Of a DNA stretch of 48,508 bases, positions 1,488 to 39,009 are shown piece by piece. The position numbers were made by a program, and so were the translations under genes. The stretch spans positions 1-48,508 of the forward strand of contig JBAXPY010000001.1 in assembly GCA_037132035.1 (NCBI GenBank), in the 5' to 3' direction. Source of the stretch: Candidatus Moraniibacteriota bacterium. GTDB taxonomy: Bacteria > Patescibacteriota > Minisyncoccia > Moranbacterales > UBA2206. Each line of letters begins with the position of its first letter. Position 1 is the first letter of the stretch. The notes under the pieces were generated by a model. That model saw only the letters and a program-made list of their open reading frames with translations. It was not told the origin of the DNA and searched no databases.

Positions 1488-4400
1488 ATGAAAAAAAAAT
1501 TTCTCACTCTCGCACTGTTTCTGGCATTTATTCTTTTCAATCAAAAGGCACAAGCCACAGCAGTTTCACCGACAACAATTCCTCCGGCAGTAACATCAGA
1601 AACAGTGCCCAGGCAAGTTGACGTGGGAAATCAACAAGGCGAAGTTGGCAAAATGACAGTCATTGCTGATATTAATTTCAGAGACCCCAGTATCATCAAG
1701 CAGGAAAACAACAAATTGATTCTCTATTTTAGTTTAGAAAATAAGTTTCCAAAAAGTGAAGCAGGTATTCGCTATGGTGTCCAATTGATCAAGGACAAAA
1801 CGCTCATAGACGAAAAAGTCTATACTGATGATGTGCTGTCTGTTGAAAGCAATAATTTTATTCAAAAAATCTTCAGTTATGATGCTCCTGGTTATCTCTT
1901 TGGCGATTTTGAATTGTGGCTTGTGTCTGAAAATGAAAGTGGTCTGCCCCTTGCCACTTTCAAATTTGAAAAACCGCTGACGCTTATGGGCACTGGGGAA
2001 TATTTGGAAATTAATAATAAATCTTGCAGTCTAAAGATTGAAGGGGATAAGGATAATAAAATATATTCACTAATGCAGGGCGTTTCCCTGAAGCCGGAAG
2101 AAACACTCAGGCTTAATTGTGAAGTGATTAGTCATTTCAAGGAAGCAGTTACAATCTCTCCAAGCTATAGCACCTTTGAACGCACCCTTTTTGGCAATCT
2201 GGTTGACAGGGATAGGAAAGGAGCAGAATTGACTTTTCAATCGGGAGAAAAAAAGACAGTTAATCTGGCAATTGAAAAACCAAAAAATCCTCAAGCCTAT
2301 GAAGTCAAGGTGGATTTAGTCCAAAATAGTAGACCTGTTTCTGGCCAATTAATAAATGCTAAAGTCAAAAAAACAGATTCAGCTCAAAATAACATCTCTG
2401 TTTCCAGCCCGGTCATTTTTCATTATGTGATTGCCGGAGAAAGTGCCACGATTCGAAAGCTGGATTTGGATAAGATCAGCTATCAAAAAGGCGACATCAT
2501 CAATGCTACTCTGCGATGGTCCGGCTCGGCTGATAATTTCGGGGATTCGCGCACCGGAAATACAAAAGACAATACTGTATTGCTTAGTCTCGACATTTCC
2601 GATGATGCCAATCAAAAATGTGCTGACAGCTTGGAAGAAACACTTGAGCCAAATTCGCCAGAGGCCAAACTTGCTCTCACGGCCAAGATCAATTGTACTG
2701 ATCCGAAAGTGAAAGTAACTCTCAAGAATGGACAGGGAGTGGTTCTCGCTCAAAAGGAATTTAATTATTTGAAAAATAAGGAAATTTCTCCAAAACAGCC
2801 TGGAGCAACTGCACCTACAGCTAAACATAAGAGCAGTAACTCGGTGATCATTATTATATTAATTCTTGTGCTTGTTGTGACTCTGATTTTATTTTTTTTG
2901 AAAAAAAGAAATAAAACTGGGAAGTTATTATTTTTGCTTTTGCTTGGAGTTTTGTTTAGTTGCAGATTGCAAAATGTGAGAGCTATTACAATTGATAAGC
3001 CATATAATAGTTGGGGAGATTTTTGTTATTCTGTAAATTTGAATAAAGGGTCAGGACCCTACGACACAGGAGAGGCAATGTCTGTGACGTATAGTGGAAG
3101 TGCGACCAATACTGGTTGTTTTGATCATGATGGGAATACTACGTTATTAGCTTCAACGAACACATCCGATAGCTGGTCTGATGTTAGCTGGAGGGGCAAT
3201 CAAAATTTTAAGGATGGAAATTGTAATGTTAGTATTCCTAGTTCCACTTGGAATGCGGGTAGCGCACCATCGTCAAGTGGCTCAATTTCTCTTATAGCTT
3301 GCATAACTGGAGAGGGTTCTTTGGGCGTTAGATCTTATTGTTCTGGCACATCATCTGGTGGGGGTAATTTTGATTCTGCGAGTGGGAGTATCCCCTATAC
3401 CGTTCGTGGCGCCACTCCACTTCCAACGCCTACTTGCGATATTAATTTTGGCAGCGGCACATATACCGCTGGTAGTTGGGGGACAATGACTTGGTCAAGT
3501 ACTAATACAACGAATGCTTATCTGACTTGTTCTTTGGGCTCTAGCGTTCTCGTAAATGGTGCTGAGGTATATTCATCAACATCTTCCTATGCGACCAAAA
3601 ATTATGGAGTATCACTTGCATCAGCAGGAACGGTTGCTTGCACACTTAAAGTGGTTAACTCAGCCGCTAGTTCTGAAAGCACACAAAGCACTTGTTCCGC
3701 TTGGGCGGTAGTCAGTGGGCCAATTCCTACCCCCAAGTGCGTCGCTTCATTTAGCGTTGTAAATATTCAAGCTCCTGGTACAGCATATCTTTCCTGGTAT
3801 TCTTTCGATGCGGATAAGACGATTGGTTCTTGTTCTGGCATTGGAAGTCCGGTTCCAGCAGCTGATTATGGTTTGGCTTATGACAATTATCCTATTGCTT
3901 TCGTTGCGACGGATAGTGGGACAGAGACTTGCACTTTTACGCCATATATTGGTGCGACCGCGGGAACTCCATGTTCGGCTAGTGTGCTAGTGAGATCACA
4001 AGGGGTTTGTGGTTCCGCCGATGGAACATCCTCATGCACGCAGCCGACTACTGGCCTTTGCGGTTCATCGAGTACTGCTTCTGCGGTTACTGGCACTGGT
4101 CCATGGAATTGGACTTGTACGGGAGCTAGTGGCGGTGGCAGCGTGAGCTGTTCTGCGACTAAAAGTTGCGCACTAGCTTCGTGTCATGCTTCTTTTTCTC
4201 CTTCTAGTATCCTTACTTCTTCAACTACTCCTGGCGTTTCTGTTCTTGCGTGGGATTCCACGGGTGATTCAATGACAGTGTCTTGTACAGGGCCAATGCC
4301 GATTAGCCCTGCGATGAGCGTTGTTAATCCTGCGAGTGGTTCTGGCCCTGTTCCCTTTACCGTGGATCAAACTGGAATAGAGAAATGTACGTTTACTCCG

Positions 4401-6093: not shown

Positions 6094-6198
6094 AGCTTGA
6101 GCTAGGATAGGCAATAAAACAAAAGTCGAATTAAAAAAGAAAAGGCACCCGAAGGCGATTCGCTTGCTCAGGTATTTGCAGGAGCCGATCAAGCTCAA

Positions 6199-6465
6199 GT
6201 GAAGACTACATCTGATGCTATGGGCAGTATTGAAGCGGTTGATGGAAAAACCTTGACCATAAAACAAGTATTGGGAAGTGTCACGATAAATATTGATAGC
6301 GCTTCTCAAATAACAGTAATAGATGACAAAAATCAGTCAGCTCCTGGAAAATTGGCAGATCTTTTGGTGGGTGATTCAGTCAAGGCAACTTATGACAAGG
6401 CGACTAAAAATTCTGTTGCGATTTTTGTTACAAAAAAGCAAGCAGTTGCAAAAAAAACTAAATAA
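6199..6465 (+). CDS. Paralog of the preceding small protein, lacking a signal/anchor (possibly a truncated duplicate)
   Basis: ORF track with a GTG start. MGSIEAVDGKTLTIKQ...DLLVGDSVKATYDKATKNSVAIFVT aligns with 5677..6093. The frame is open back to ~6115 without an ATG or any hydrophobic N-terminus. Confidence 0.4.
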   Translation: MKTTSDAMGSIEAVDGKTLTIKQVLGSVTINIDSASQITVIDDKNQSAPGKLADLLVGDSVKATYDKATKNSVAIFVTKKQAVAKKTK

Positions 6466-25455: not shown

Positions 25456-25869
25456 ATGAAAAAAAATAGGGAAACCACAATCGATGAATTAGCTATCATG
25501 ATTCAAAAGGGTTTCGAAGAGTCGGATAAGCGAATGAAGGAAGGATTTAAGGAGTCGGATAAGCGAATGAATGATGGATTTAAGGAGTCGGATAAGCAAA
25601 CTGATAATAAAATTGAAGCGCTAGCCAGTATGGTTCAAAAAGGATTTGATGGTATGGATAAAAAATTTGATAAGAAGTTTGAAGTTGTGCATGAGGAATT
25701 GAAAAAAATCAATAAGACTCTGGTTGCGCTAGAAAAAGGGCAAGAGGATTTGAAATTGCGCCAGGATAATGTGCCGTATCGGTTTGAGTTGAAAGAACAG
25801 GGGGATGTGATAACTGATCACGATAAGCGTATTAGATTTCTTGAGCGAAAAGTGCTATTAGCGAATTAA
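25456..25869 (+). CDS. Small coiled-coil protein with 3 x 11-aa repeat (GF[EK]ESDK..), unknown function
   Basis: ORF track. 33-nt tandem repeat x3 (25509-25607). Driven by the same promoter block as the MNT genes. Confidence 0.55.
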   Translation: MKKNRETTIDELAIMIQKGFEESDKRMKEGFKESDKRMNDGFKESDKQTDNKIEALASMVQKGFDGMDKKFDKKFEVVHEELKKINKTLVALEKGQEDLKLRQDNVPYRFELKEQGDVITDHDKRIRFLERKVLLAN

Positions 25870-37199: not shown

Positions 37200-37282
37200 T
37201 TTTTGGGAATAATTGACGTTTTGGATTTTTTGAGTTAGACTGAATAATAGTTTAGAAATTGTTAGGTGTAGCCTATTTTTTC

Positions 37283-37402
37283 TGTCATCCCCGCGAAGGC
37301 GGGGATCCAGTGGAGATACTTAGTTCAACGGTCAGTCTAAATACTGAGCAAATCTAGTTAAGTATGTTTTTGCACTAGATTCCCGCCTTCGCGGGAATGA
37401 CA
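37283..37402. repeat. Inverted pair of ~30-nt GC-rich palindromic repeats (MITE-like 120-bp unit) just upstream of tRNA-fMet
   Basis: TGTCATCCCCGCGAAGGCGGGGATCCAGTG (37283-37312) versus the reverse complement of 37373-37402, TGTCATTCCCGCGAAGGCGGGAATCTAGTG. Each contains an 8-bp stem/4-nt loop hairpin (37287-37306 and 37379-37398). Confidence 0.6.
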
Positions 37403-37406
37403 ACGA

Positions 37407-37478
37407 AGCGGGATGGAGCAATGGCAGCTCGTCTGGCTCATAACCAGAAGGTTCCAGGTTCGAATCCTGGTCCCGCAA
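37407..37478 (+). tRNA. Initiator tRNA-fMet (CAT)
   Basis: Manual cloverleaf: AGCGGGA TG GAGC AATGGCA GCTC G TCTGG CTCATAA CCAGA AGGTT CCAGG TTCGAAT CCTGG TCCCGCA A. It aligns closely with E. coli tRNA-fMet. It has a 1:72 mismatch (A.A) and A11:U24. No CCA is encoded. Confidence 0.85.
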
Positions 37479-37558
37479 CAAATAGTATTTAGTATCCAGT
37501 ATGATGTTCTGGTATTATTTTTTTCCGATACTAAATACAAAATACCAGATACTGATTC

Positions 37559-37632
<74 letters not shown>

Positions 37633-37650
37633 CAAAGGAAAATTTAAATT

Positions 37651-37724
37651 GGGGGCGTAGCTCAGTTGGTTAGAGCGACTGCCTGTCACGCAGTAGGTCA
37701 CCGGTTCGAGTCCGGCCGTCCCCG
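37651..37724 (+). tRNA. tRNA-Asp (GTC)
   Basis: GGGGGCG TA GCTC AGTTGGTTA GAGC G ACTGC CTGTCAC GCAGT AGGTC ACCGG TTCGAGT CCGGC CGTCCCC G. Discriminator G as expected for Asp. Confidence 0.88.
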
Positions 37725-37837
37725 CATCTTAAGTCATCCCGCCAAGGCGGGACCGTCCCCGCATCTTAAGTCATCCCGCCAAGGCGGGACCGTCCCCGCA
37801 TCATAAGTCATCCCGCCGCGGCGGGACCGTCCCCGCA
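37717..37837 (+). repeat. 37-nt tandem repeat x3.3 that starts inside tRNA-Asp and reiterates its 3' acceptor strand
   Basis: Units at 37717-37753, 37754-37790 and 37791-37827, plus a partial unit at 37828-37837. Each unit is CGTCCCCGCA + TCTTAAGTCA + hairpin TCCCGC-CAAG-GCGGGA + C. The third unit has 3 substitutions. Confidence 0.9.
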
Positions 37838-37844
37838 GAAAAAA

Positions 37845-37867
37845 ACGAAGCATTTCGCTTCGTTTTT
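37845..37867 (+). terminator. Rho-independent (bidirectional-looking) terminator closing the tRNA cluster
   Basis: ACGAAGC / GCTTCGT stem with a 5-nt loop, an A-run before and a T-run after. Confidence 0.6.
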
Positions 37868-37890: not shown

Positions 37891-37919
37891 TTGACAAAAA
37901 ACATCTAAAATGATACAAT
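37891..37919 (+). promoter_or_regulatory. Promoter TTGACA-17-TACAAT (with TG extension) upstream of the RhuM-like gene
   Basis: -35 at 37891-37896 and -10 at 37914-37919. Confidence 0.55.
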
Positions 37920-37947: not shown

Positions 37948-39009
37948 ATGAAAAAAAGAAAGCAAAAAATTGTTCCAAATAATAGTTTCACGGAGTTTTT
38001 GTTTTACACCACTCCGAATGGAAAGGTGAAGGTCGAAATTTTTTTGCGTGATGAAACTGTGTGGCTGACTCAAGAGAAAATTGCTTTTTTATTCGGTGTT
38101 CAGAGGCCAGCCATCACTAAACACCTTAAAAATATCTTCGAAAGTGGAGAATTAGATGAAAAAGTGGTTAGTTCCATTTTGGAACATACCACGGAGCATG
38201 GAGCTCTGGAGGGGAAAACACAAACTCAGCTGGTAAAATTTTATAACCTCGATGCGATCCTCTCAATTGGTTACAGGGTAAATAGCTCACAGGCTACACA
38301 ATTCCGAATTTGGGCAACAGAGCGACTAAAAGAATATATCATCAAGGGATTTACGATGGATGATGAAAGACTAAAAACCCCCAACTACACCTTTGGTCAA
38401 GATTATTTTGAAGAGCAGTTGGCGCGTATAGCGGACATTCGCAGTAGCGAACGTAGATTTTACCAAAAAATCACCGATATTTATGCCCAGTGCAGTGCGG
38501 ATTATGACAAGAGTAGTGTTGAAGCTCAGCATTTTTTTGCTACCGTGCAAAATAAATTACACTTCGCAATTTCAGGCTACACGGCTGCGGAAATTATTAG
38601 CAGTCGTGTGAGTAGTGCTAAGCCAAGTGTTGGTCTCACTAACTGGAAAAACAGCCCACAAGGTGCTATACGAAAATCAGATGTAGTAGTGGCTAAAAAT
38701 TATCTAAATAAAGAAGAGCTCGCAGGTCTCAATAATATTGTGGAACAATATTTAATCTTTGCTGAGTCACAAGCGAACCGTAAGCAGGCCATGTTTATGC
38801 TGGATTGGAAAAAAAAGTTAAGTGAATTTTTAAAACTTAATGATCGTGACATCTTGGGAGATTTGGGCAAAGTCAGCCATGTTGTGGCTGAAGCTCTGGC
38901 GCTGGAAGAATACAAGAAATACCGAATAGATCAAGACAAAAATTACATTTCTGATTTTGATCGAGAGGTGAAGAGGATGCTGGAGAGTAGGAAGAAAATT
39001 AAGAAATAA
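37948..39009 (+). CDS. RhuM-family (virulence protein RhuM-like) protein
   Basis: TTPNGKVKVEIFLRDETVWLTQEKIAFLFGVQRPAITKHLKNIF...YNLDAILSIGYRVNSSQATQFRIWAT is the characteristic RhuM N-terminal region as I recall it. Confidence 0.75.
   Translation: MKKRKQKIVPNNSFTEFLFYTTPNGKVKVEIFLRDETVWLTQEKIAFLFGVQRPAITKHLKNIFESGELDEKVVSSILEHTTEHGALEGKTQTQLVKFYNLDAILSIGYRVNSSQATQFRIWATERLKEYIIKGFTMDDERLKTPNYTFGQDYFEEQLARIADIRSSERRFYQKITDIYAQCSADYDKSSVEAQHFFATVQNKLHFAISGYTAAEIISSRVSSAKPSVGLTNWKNSPQGAIRKSDVVVAKNYLNKEELAGLNNIVEQYLIFAESQANRKQAMFMLDWKKKLSEFLKLNDRDILGDLGKVSHVVAEALALEEYKKYRIDQDKNYISDFDREVKRMLESRKKIKK

Follow-up and report, generated by a model that had tools for sequence, protein, structure and literature searches.

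The window analysed here is the whole of a 48.5-kb contig (C1; 48,508 nucleotides) from the draft genome of a Candidatus Moraniibacteriota bacterium, hereafter G000 (1.08 Mb in 104 contigs, 39.8% GC, 83% complete). Directly behind its tRNA-Asp(GTC) gene lie three tandem units of 37 nt (37727-37837), each of which is a pseudo-copy of the 3′ third of that same gene in which the T arm has been replaced by a GC-rich hairpin. The hairpin is a variant of a repeat dispersed through the genome, which by its sequence belongs with the Neisseria Transformation Sequence (NTS), and relatives of G000 harbour intact cassettes in which a small GIY-YIG nuclease gene is lodged between parts of a tRNA gene. We consider it reasonably probable that the array is a non-functional, amplified scar of such a tRNA-invading nuclease/hairpin cassette. 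The tRNA-Asp locus was compared in 25 related genomes (labelled G001 etc.; C stands for contigs and L for fetched loci) and metagenomes of the Joint Genome Institute (JGI) were scanned as well; tRNA genes were called with ARAGORN and Rfam, and tandem repeats with Tandem Repeats Finder (TRF).

Anatomy of the array

The tRNA gene and the three units read as follows.

37651-37725, + strand: tRNA-Asp(GTC), the sole tRNA-Asp gene in the assembly; CCA is not encoded
37727-37763, + strand: unit 1, with spacer TCTTAA, then GTCA and hairpin TCCCGCCAAGGCGGGA (37737-37752), then the tail copy CCGTCCCCGCA (37753-37763)
37764-37800, + strand: unit 2, identical to unit 1, with its hairpin at 37774-37789
37801-37837, + strand: unit 3 (distal), with spacer TCATAA, loop CCGCGG, hairpin at 37811-37826, then the tail copy

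The first-pass annotation of this DNA had described four copies of the end of tRNA-Asp in a 37-nt array, and this is borne out by direct reading, by shuffling and by TRF: CGTCCCCGCA is found exactly at 37717, 37754, 37791 and 37828, shuffled sequences give 0.05 occurrences on average and none of 100 shuffles reaches four, and TRF reports a period of 37, 3.3 copies, 96% matches and a score of 223 at 37716-37837 (an array of 122 nt). The repeated block had been taken to be the last 8 nt of the tRNA plus CA; the tail is indeed what is repeated, but the block is actually 11 nt long, CCGTCCCCGCA, with its native copy at 37716-37726. Each copy of the tail is followed, as had been noticed, by a spacer (TC(T/A)TAAGTCA) and a CCCGC-type hairpin, and the array itself by a terminator-like hairpin at 37841-37867. 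The layout of a unit is thus TC(T/A)TAA, GTCA, TCCCGCC-NN-GGCGGGA and CCGTCCCCGCA, with CCCGCC-NN-GGCGGG hairpins at 37738-37751, 37775-37788 and 37812-37825, and the succession of tail, 26 nt and tail constitutes a direct repeat. Unit 3 differs from the two others at three positions (T>A in the spacer, AA>GC in the loop) and is probably the oldest. Its TCATAA spacer is also present in G010, G011 and G082, all three of which have the AA loop and not the GC loop of unit 3.

The nature of the unit became apparent from an alignment of the units of ten genomes or metagenomes with positions 37-76 of tRNA-Asp (alignment A1). The unit is collinear with this segment (from about position 40 to 76), the T arm being swapped for a GC hairpin of 16-17 nt. 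The right side, CCGTCCCCGCA, is the 3′ strand of the acceptor stem; on the left, the GTCA that precedes the hairpin corresponds to the last part of the variable loop; and the hairpin plus one flanking base fills the 17 nt of the T arm. Some relatives have kept more of the left side: the G015 unit retains GCAGTAAGTCA, identical at 10 of 11 positions to the GCAGTAGGTCA of the tRNA, and TAGGTCA is retained exactly in the G001 unit and in the distal unit of metagenome Ga0268283. Plain insertion of a transposon with an 8-13-bp target duplication was rejected because the sequence to the left of the hairpin is also derived from the tRNA, as G015 and G001 illustrate. Duplication of a transposon target is further disfavoured by the MITE-like (miniature inverted-repeat transposable element) relatives of the hairpin, which lack target duplications, and by the fact that the apparent "duplication" reaches 30-45 nt at other tRNAs.

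The hairpin belongs to a genome-wide repeat

Sequences of the form CCCGC-N3-6-GCGGG are found at about 65 loci in the 1.08 Mb of G000. Most of these loci are inverted pairs that form MITE-like elements of 120-160 bp without target duplications, the ends of which read (T)GTCAT[TC]CCCGCG[ARG]AGGCGGG[AG]ATC[CT]AG. The NTS consensus is CGTCATTCCCGCGMAVGCGGGAATCYRG (Chenal et al. 2025, PMC11893778). SsnA, a single-domain GIY-YIG protein of 94 aa, binds the NTS hairpin only when the DNA is single-stranded (ssDNA) and only on one of the strands; its cut falls a few nucleotides 5′ of the hairpin. In many phyla, ssn homologues have related motifs (SRM) at their flanks (PMC11893778). Since the NTS consensus, minus its first C, has 20 exact occurrences in G000 and 43 with at most three mismatches, against none for the reversed pattern, the genome-wide repeat is, judged by its sequence, an NTS/SRM. 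The array hairpin (AGTCA-TCCCGC-CAAG-GCGGGA-C) corresponds to NTS minus one symmetric base pair of the stem and with a G>C change in the loop. Compared with the consensus it is a variant only (three substitutions and three deletions over 28 positions), which retains GTCA on the 5′ side, the TCCCGC/GCGGGA stem and the C that follows it; compared with the genome-wide NTS terminus of G000, it is identical at 20 of 21 positions.

An NTS-flanked nuclease gene is not present in the G000 assembly, which is 83% complete. The single GIY-YIG gene found there (83 aa; C12:2622-2870; PF01541, E = 6e-18) is flanked by CCCCGCC-NN-GGCGGGG, which is not a strict NTS. As for transposases that could move the hairpin elements, no Y1/RAYT (PF01797), IS110 (PF01548) or TnpB (PF07282) was detected in G000.

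An origin of the hairpin from rRNA was considered and set aside. The 23S rRNA gene of G060 matches it at 21 of 22 positions on the opposite strand (L022, G060:C5, about 948-967, as the reverse complement of the GTCAT-hairpin part of the unit), but this is a native helix located before the conserved GACUGCG and was judged to be a coincidence. The pattern is also matched in Bacteroidota, Omnitrophota and other phyla, by separate families resembling repetitive extragenic palindromes (REP), which share the GC core and have no link to tRNAs. One of them, GGCACAAGTCATCCCGCCAAGGCGGGACAGGAAGACTTGCGCC, which contains the 20-nt core of the unit hairpin unchanged, occurs several times per genome in metagenome-assembled genomes (MAGs) of Bacteroidota/Saprospiraceae (L037, L040, L042, L044, L046, L049), not near tRNA genes.

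The same design at other tRNA genes of G000

It had been proposed that the mobile-DNA interpretation would be refuted, and the array be a generic repeat with no link to the tRNA, if identical arrays followed many unrelated genes. To this the genome gives a divided answer: the hairpin by itself is generic (43 NTS-like copies), but the combination of a hairpin with a tail is met at tRNA genes only, each time with the tail of the tRNA concerned, which makes the link to the tRNA a genuine one. For the 29 tRNA genes of G000, the trailers were listed and then aligned. A tRNA-Met gene on contig C13 is followed by GTCAT, a hairpin and 13 nt of its own tail; tRNA-Gln(ttg), tRNA-Leu(tag) and tRNA-Leu(gag) are each followed by a hairpin and their own 3′ part, identical over at least 30 nt for tRNA-Gln(ttg) and over 41-45 nt for tRNA-Leu(tag). 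A weaker case is tRNA-Thr(cgt), where the match to the tail extends over 8-9 nt only. When the genome was scanned for any sequence repeated on the far side of a hairpin (X...hairpin-X, with CCCGC...GCGGG or CCTGCC...GGCAGG), meaningful matches were obtained only at tRNAs Asp, Met, Gln-ttg, Leu-gag and Leu-tag, the two others being A/T-rich chance matches of 8-10 nt. The arm that is lost is not always the same: at tRNA-Gln and tRNA-Leu(tag) it is the anticodon arm that is exactly replaced by a hairpin (16 nt in place of 17), at tRNA-Asp and tRNA-Met the T arm.

Pseudo-fragments of tRNA-Val(gac), tRNA-Glu(ctc) and tRNA-Glu(ttc) carry other inserts in the T loop. In the 3′ pseudo-copies of the two tRNA-Glu genes (C67, about 1845-1960, minus strand; C22, about 6130-6245, plus strand) this is a structured insert of about 112 nt (GGACGGGTATTTC...GACGGATGAAGAG), and a related insert lies in a pseudo-tRNA-Asp of G031 (L097, about 805-915). 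No Rfam family matches the inserts of the pseudo-tRNAs. Two of the downstream copies bear a CCA, and an origin as retro-copies of mature tRNAs was therefore contemplated; it was rejected because the duplicated block of tRNA-Glu(ttc) runs 16 nt past the end of the tRNA. Finally, the end of contig C60 (6897-6937) and the start of C52 (14-54) share a hairpin and the 3′ part of the pseudo-tRNA-Leu(tag); the assembly broke at this shared repeat, so the two contigs are neighbours.

Nuclease cassettes at tRNA genes of related bacteria

What the pseudo-tRNAs may derive from is suggested by the related genomes, which contain between 0 and 12 small GIY-YIG genes each (PF01541; 83-95 aa). A tRNA gene is found within 168 nt at 16 of the 28 GIY-YIG loci that were fetched, compared with about 3% expected by chance (an estimate from tRNA density). 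Several of these loci are built as cassettes inside a tRNA gene. In G005, tRNA-Gln is followed after 16 nt by a GIY-YIG open reading frame (ORF), the stop codon of which lies in GTAAGGCA, then by a hairpin standing in the place of the anticodon arm and by the 3′ part of the tRNA; the layout in G030 is alike, with a different hairpin. G001 displays, one after the other, a full-length tRNA-Gln copy with a hairpin, a GIY-YIG gene, a working tRNA-Gln and a remnant devoid of ORF. The tRNA-Gln remnant of G000, TTGTGTGCAATATCAAAAG|TGTAAGGCA-hairpin-3′ part, is such a cassette without the ORF. At tRNA-Asp itself, an example is provided by G031, where a pseudo-5′ half (with a 35-nt palindrome in the D loop, and ending in the anticodon loop) precedes a GIY-YIG gene, a full tRNA-Asp with its terminator and a pseudo-3′ part with the same terminator. 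G030 has, at tRNA-Asp, pseudo-tRNA pieces with other palindromes, then a GIY-YIG gene. In G010 a LAGLIDADG gene sits beside a variant tRNA-Asp, and the tail of the next unit fits the standard tRNA and not the variant.

The association can be put in numbers. With a profile built from the GIY-YIG proteins of the clade and a limit of 1.5 kb, a GIY-YIG or LAGLIDADG gene is present near tRNA-Asp, in the Met-Met-Asp operon, in 6 of the 12 genomes that have a pseudo-3′ remnant there and in none of the 13 that do not (Fisher p = 0.005, or 0.01 by hand recalculation if the orphan unit of G007 is counted, in both cases uncorrected for phylogeny). GIY-YIG ORFs in or beside tRNA genes are present in G005, G011, G015, G030 and G031, and at tRNA-Gln in G000. 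The profile search found no GIY-YIG ORF within 1.5 kb of tRNA-Asp in G000, and thus the array there can at most be the remnant of a cassette.

Two observations on other tRNAs of these genomes may be added. At L024 (G010:C11, 365-1492), and also at L098 (G015, 440-650), one tRNA-Met gene lies within a second, and this within a third. The innermost is intact, whereas inserts with long inverted repeats divide the middle gene in its D loop and the outer gene in its anticodon loop; a LAGLIDADG gene (725-1396) and a variant tRNA-Asp come next. This looks like the serial replacement of a resident tRNA by incoming copies. The other concerns tRNA-Gln(ttg), the anticodon stem of which varies among the congeneric G000, G001, G005, G007, G010 and G030 (GGGGC/GCCCC, CGGAC/GTCCG or CCGGG/CCCGT; L066-L071), the rest of the molecule being nearly constant; this variation may represent escape from a nuclease that targets the anticodon arm.

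Copy number of the unit

Comparison of related genomes, suggested in the first-pass annotation as a way of checking the array, did reveal length polymorphism, from no unit to at least four plus a degenerate one. The unit is absent from 13 of the 25 genomes (e.g. G002, G004, G006, G007, G009, G012, G013, G016, G018 and G020), the tRNA of which is nearly identical; it is present once in G001, G008, G010, G011, G015, G055 and G082, twice, with a length of 42 nt, in G005, and three times in G000. In the JGI metagenome Ga0268283, one contig ends in tRNA-Asp and at least four identical units, and a second one has at least three such units, a degenerate distal unit and a terminator homologous to that of G000; the assembly broke inside the array. 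The exact junction of hairpin and tail was found in 7 of the 319 genomes of the order. After the last copy comes the native trailer: the empty site of G016 matches the sequence that lies past the unit in G008, and empty sites keep the same trailer (L019 as compared with L007).

Units are identical within an array and different between lineages (TCTTAAG, TCGTAAG or TCATAAG), the distal one always being the most divergent. Identical units combined with a divergent distal unit are the signature of amplification in situ, and not of independent insertions. The earlier suggestion of slipped-strand amplification of a palindromic element is thereby supported as far as the growth of the array is concerned, the units being alike within arrays and their number being 0, 1, 2, 3 or at least 4. 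The stem of the hairpin is kept and its loop varies, with one compensatory change (C-G to T-A) in G055.

In two genomes, blocks of genes separate tRNA-Asp from a further unit. G005 (L050, L051; C24:8600-14562 and C4:26100-34932) has a type I restriction-modification and defence island between tRNA-Asp with its two units and an orphan, which consists of a pseudo-tRNA segment from the T loop to CCA, a unit and a terminator, and lies beside a RhuM gene. G007 (L109; C5:98217-111650) has 13.4 kb, including a gene resembling that of tyrosyl-tRNA synthetase, between tRNA-Asp and an orphan of the same composition. Neither an integrase nor a GIY-YIG or other nuclease gene was seen in these intervening segments of 13-20 kb.

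A possible origin of the array

The scenario that we favour would start with the entry of a cassette into tRNA-Asp. The cassette would bring or regenerate an intact tRNA and push the old 3′ part aside, the displaced part carrying a hairpin in place of the T arm. The nuclease gene would later have been lost, probably by recombination between the duplicated parts of the tRNA, so as to leave tRNA-Asp, a short spacer, the hairpin, the old tail and the native terminator. From then on, the direct repeat formed by the two tails and the 26 nt between them could grow and shrink by slipped-strand mispairing or by out-of-register repair of breaks. The idea of serial scars of mobile DNA at a tRNA 3′ end, one of the three explanations first put forward, would survive in spirit, given the pseudo-tRNA nature of the unit and its cassette relatives, but the agent was probably not an integrase. 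A precedent for tandem amplification driven by a nuclease at tRNA loci is SegB, a GIY-YIG enzyme of the tRNA cluster of phage T6, which cuts tRNA genes at RAWTSGAAC and which is required, together with recombination genes, for a ladder-like tandem amplification of segments (PMC13096335). In our own reading, this motif resembles the T-loop region. In addition, the variable loop and T arm of the tRNA gene read GGTCA, hairpin, C, which is the layout of an SRM and may explain why T arms get replaced.

Several facts weigh against this scenario. At tRNA-Asp, none of the cassettes found is intact and bears exactly this hairpin, and the link to cassettes therefore rests on analogy with tRNA-Gln, G031 and G030. 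Strict NTS hairpins flank only one of the 28 GIY-YIG loci (in G009, on C76), and the nearest solved structures to the GIY-YIG proteins of the clade, candidate Ssn members (cd10448), are UPF0213 proteins. G000 has one GIY-YIG gene in an assembly that is 83% complete, and it is at tRNA-Gln. The model gives no route by which a hairpin would replace an arm of a tRNA. The association test treats the genomes as if they had no shared ancestry, and the number of units given for G000 is that of the assembled contig. Lastly, the 13-20 kb between tRNA-Asp and the orphan units of G005 and G007, where neither nuclease nor integrase was seen, imply that other recombination routes act at this site; tRNA-Asp is a general recombination hotspot, which has likely undergone older events of another kind.

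The tRNA operon around the array

The other features of the region are listed here.

37213-37241, + strand: promoter-like site TTGACG-17-TAGACT, upstream of the hairpin-pair element and the three tRNAs; its equivalent in G005 is TTGACG...TAGAAT
37283-37402, no strand assigned: MITE-like element, with NTS/SRM hairpins at 37283-37310 (+) and 37375-37402 (−), inverted, about 64 nt between them
37407-37479, + strand: tRNA-Met(CAT) number 1 (ARAGORN, Rfam)
37559-37633, + strand: tRNA-Met(CAT) number 2 (ARAGORN, Rfam)
37841-37867, + strand: intrinsic-terminator-like hairpin with T run, closing the tRNA operon; native trailer
37891-37919 and 37948-39009, + strand: promoter (11 of 12 matches) and RhuM-family gene, the first accessory gene past the array

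Because there is a promoter-like site upstream and a terminator-like hairpin after the array, and because the RhuM-family gene has a strong promoter of its own, the array belongs to the 3′ trailer of this operon. The accessory genes reported immediately downstream are thus there, starting with RhuM, under a separate promoter. The terminator is homologous to those that follow the orphan unit in G005 and the array in Ga0268283. The MITE-like element occupies the leader of the operon, 4 nt from tRNA-Met, and both its ends match CGTCATTCCCGCGMAVGCGGGAATCYRG with at most three mismatches. At this place G005 has a 5′ fragment of tRNA-Met, the palindrome CCTGCCTGCCGGCAGGCAGG and a GIY-YIG gene.

Alternative explanations

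A doubtful variant is that the tail-hairpin units still take an active part in recombination. Between the tRNA tail and the hairpin, the exposed + strand of the spacer would be nicked by an Ssn-type nuclease specific for ssDNA, and the tRNA T arm (GGTCA, hairpin, C) would mimic the target of the nuclease, hence its replacement by a hairpin. The resulting breaks would drive the expansion and contraction of the array as well as the gain and loss, without integrase, of blocks of genes behind tRNA-Asp such as those of G005 and G007.

The array could also consist of integrase scars, left by integrative islands or phages having repeatedly integrated at the 3′ end of tRNA-Asp and been lost, leaving attR-like tails, the hairpin being part of the attachment (att) region. 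tRNA 3′ ends are classic targets of integrases, an accessory gene (RhuM) follows the array in G000, and the island of G005, placed between tRNA-Asp with two units and an orphan tail with a unit, and the orphan of G007 at 13.4 kb, have the expected appearance. We nevertheless judge this to be unlikely. The only tyrosine recombinase of G000 is an Xer-like protein of 311 aa, encoded on another contig, far from the locus, and no integrase was found among the genes downstream in the window or in the G005 and G007 segments. Two scans of IMG/VR yielded no attP-like copy, the one match being a chance occurrence inside a GC-rich phage gene, and the distal att copy that the first-pass annotation proposed to look for elsewhere in the genome does not exist in G000. 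Copies of the tRNA end lying kilobases apart are lacking in G000 and are seen, in part, in G005 and G007, with 13-20 kb between them; in G000 the repeats are 26 nt apart, and an element of that size cannot serve alone as an integrase substrate. Moreover, what lies to the left of the hairpin comes from the tRNA, the T arm has not been retained but exchanged, and at other tRNAs, beside GIY-YIG genes, this hairpin takes the place of anticodon arms.

A third possibility is that of a domesticated NTS/SRM cluster, in which the hairpins would be kept as targets of an Ssn-type enzyme and, where the operon meets the variable region downstream, influence recombination or transformation; a role of this kind has been proposed for such hairpins in Neisseria (PMC11893778). 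The hairpins are indeed NTS variants in the cleavable orientation: on the + strand, the stem is preceded by GTCA and followed by C. GC skew suggests that this strand is the lagging-strand template; it is also the non-template strand of the operon. Units flank variable gene blocks in G005 and G007. But the G000 assembly has no NTS-flanked ssn gene, about half of the relatives have no unit, and cleavage of the variant hairpins is only predicted. Such a cluster appears quite unlikely to us.

It had further been suggested that the array is a functional set of 3′ processing or decoy sites affecting tRNA-Asp maturation. As RNA, it might provide decoy acceptor strands or blocks to exonucleases, or be a source of small RNAs. 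Its position between the tRNA and the operon terminator would suit this, as would its stable predicted fold (z = −4.1), in which the 5′ acceptor strand is able to pair with any of the four tails, and the conservation of the stem with a variable loop and the compensatory change in G055. Against it, 13 of the 25 related tRNA-Asp loci have no unit and the copy number is unstable (0 to at least 4); apart from the three tRNAs, nothing reaches an Rfam threshold, the best other match in the array being Guanidine-II, on the minus strand, with 20.6 bits for a threshold of 32; and the hairpin is also found in DNA outside trailers, and conservation of the stem would equally be expected of a DNA hairpin target. 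Processing or decoy sites thus seem very unlikely.

A purely local accident, in which replication slippage would have duplicated a chance palindrome together with the 11-nt tail and mobile elements would have played no part, should be regarded as very improbable. Slippage alone can turn a tail-X-tail sequence into an array, and the adjacent units are identical, but the origin of the first tail-hairpin-tail is left unexplained, as are the 20/21 identity to the NTS terminus, the presence of the same design at four other tRNAs and the association with nucleases. An error of assembly, be it a wrong number of units or a chimeric array, is hardly credible: the genome is a short-read MAG, and assemblies did break in the array of Ga0268283 and at the pseudo-tRNA-Leu repeat of C60 and C52, but at 122 nt the array is shorter than a usual read, it is anchored by its divergent third unit, and independent assemblies show the same design (two units in G005; at least four and a degenerate one in Ga0268283).

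Comparison with known systems

In our literature searches, we came across neither tRNA arms replaced by NTS-type hairpins nor arrays built of remnants of this sort. Mechanistically, Ssn/NTS and SegB come closest; in architecture, the nearest precedent is the tyrT-tyrV locus of E. coli.

The Ssn/NTS system, with its dRS3/NIME arrays in Neisseria, resembles the present case in that the G000 repeat fits CGTCATTCCCGCGMAVGCGGGAATCYRG, in the orientation of the hairpins, with GTCAT on the 5′ side, in the abundance of small single-domain GIY-YIG genes (83-95 aa) in the clade and in the presence of clusters or arrays of hairpins by variable genes. In contrast, the paper describing it makes no mention of tRNA genes, pseudo-tRNA fragments or bacteria of the Candidate Phyla Radiation (CPR) (PMC11893778), and here the hairpin, which is shortened in the array, replaces an arm in a partial tRNA copy and is reiterated with the tail. 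Our observations connect the Ssn/NTS hairpins with tRNA genes and with CPR bacteria, neither of which figures in that paper.

SegB of phages T4/T6 is likewise a free-standing GIY-YIG enzyme encoded among tRNA genes, inside which it cuts; its homologues are associated with tRNAs across phages, and it drives tandem segmental amplification (PMC13096335). It differs by acting on double-stranded DNA, in phages, with a DNA-binding extension and on kilobase-scale segments that include whole tRNA genes, and no hairpin-plugged pseudo-tRNAs have been described for it. In our case, the genome is that of a cellular CPR bacterium, the proteins are of 83-95 aa (SegB has about 220 aa), the units are of 37 nt and no nuclease gene is left at the locus.

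The distal repeats of E. coli tyrT-tyrV (rttR/tpr) are, as we checked, 3.1 copies of a 178-bp unit directly behind tyrV, each with the last 19 nt of tRNA-Tyr. That array has a period of 178 nt instead of 37, and its tail begins within the T loop and comprises CCA; it lacks an NTS-type hairpin, is not known to be linked to a nuclease and gives rise to the small RNA RttR. Elements with tRNA-targeting integrases also leave an intact tRNA with part of its 3′ end copied behind it, by accessory genes, but their att copies flank kilobases and need an integrase, whereas here they are 26 nt apart, the T arm is replaced and neither integrase nor attP was found. A last parallel is offered by the mobile endonuclease ORFs of fungal mitochondria (e.g. 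at Allomyces atp6), in which a GIY-YIG ORF inserts together with an end of the host gene and the displaced end stays downstream. Their targets are protein-coding genes of an organelle, without hairpin replacement or tandem amplification.

If the array is what we suppose, it shows the residue of tRNA-embedded GIY-YIG cassettes after loss of the nuclease, namely hairpin-plugged tails that can be mistaken for att sites and are able to form arrays. For annotation, this would mean that short tandem copies of a tRNA 3′ end split by a GC hairpin need not indicate the integration of a prophage or island. Repeats of this type break short-read assemblies, as happened twice here (the Ga0268283 array; C60/C52). 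Should a nuclease act on the units, the locus would offer a compact system in which to study how breaks drive the dynamics of repeats at essential genes, and if the units were active modules, it would represent a new type of island hotspot, driven by a nuclease, in CPR bacteria.

Other tandem repeats

Another tRNA trailer of G000, that of tRNA-Ser(cga) (C23, about 2990-3105, minus strand), contains about 2.5 tandem copies of a 37-nt unit, GCTAAAGCTTCGGCGGATGAATCYGCAGGRYAT, of different sequence but with the position and period of the tRNA-Asp array. Within the window, a 33-nt tandem repeat (2.4 copies, 95% matches, TRF score 144) is located at 25519-25597, in or near a small gene (25456-25869).

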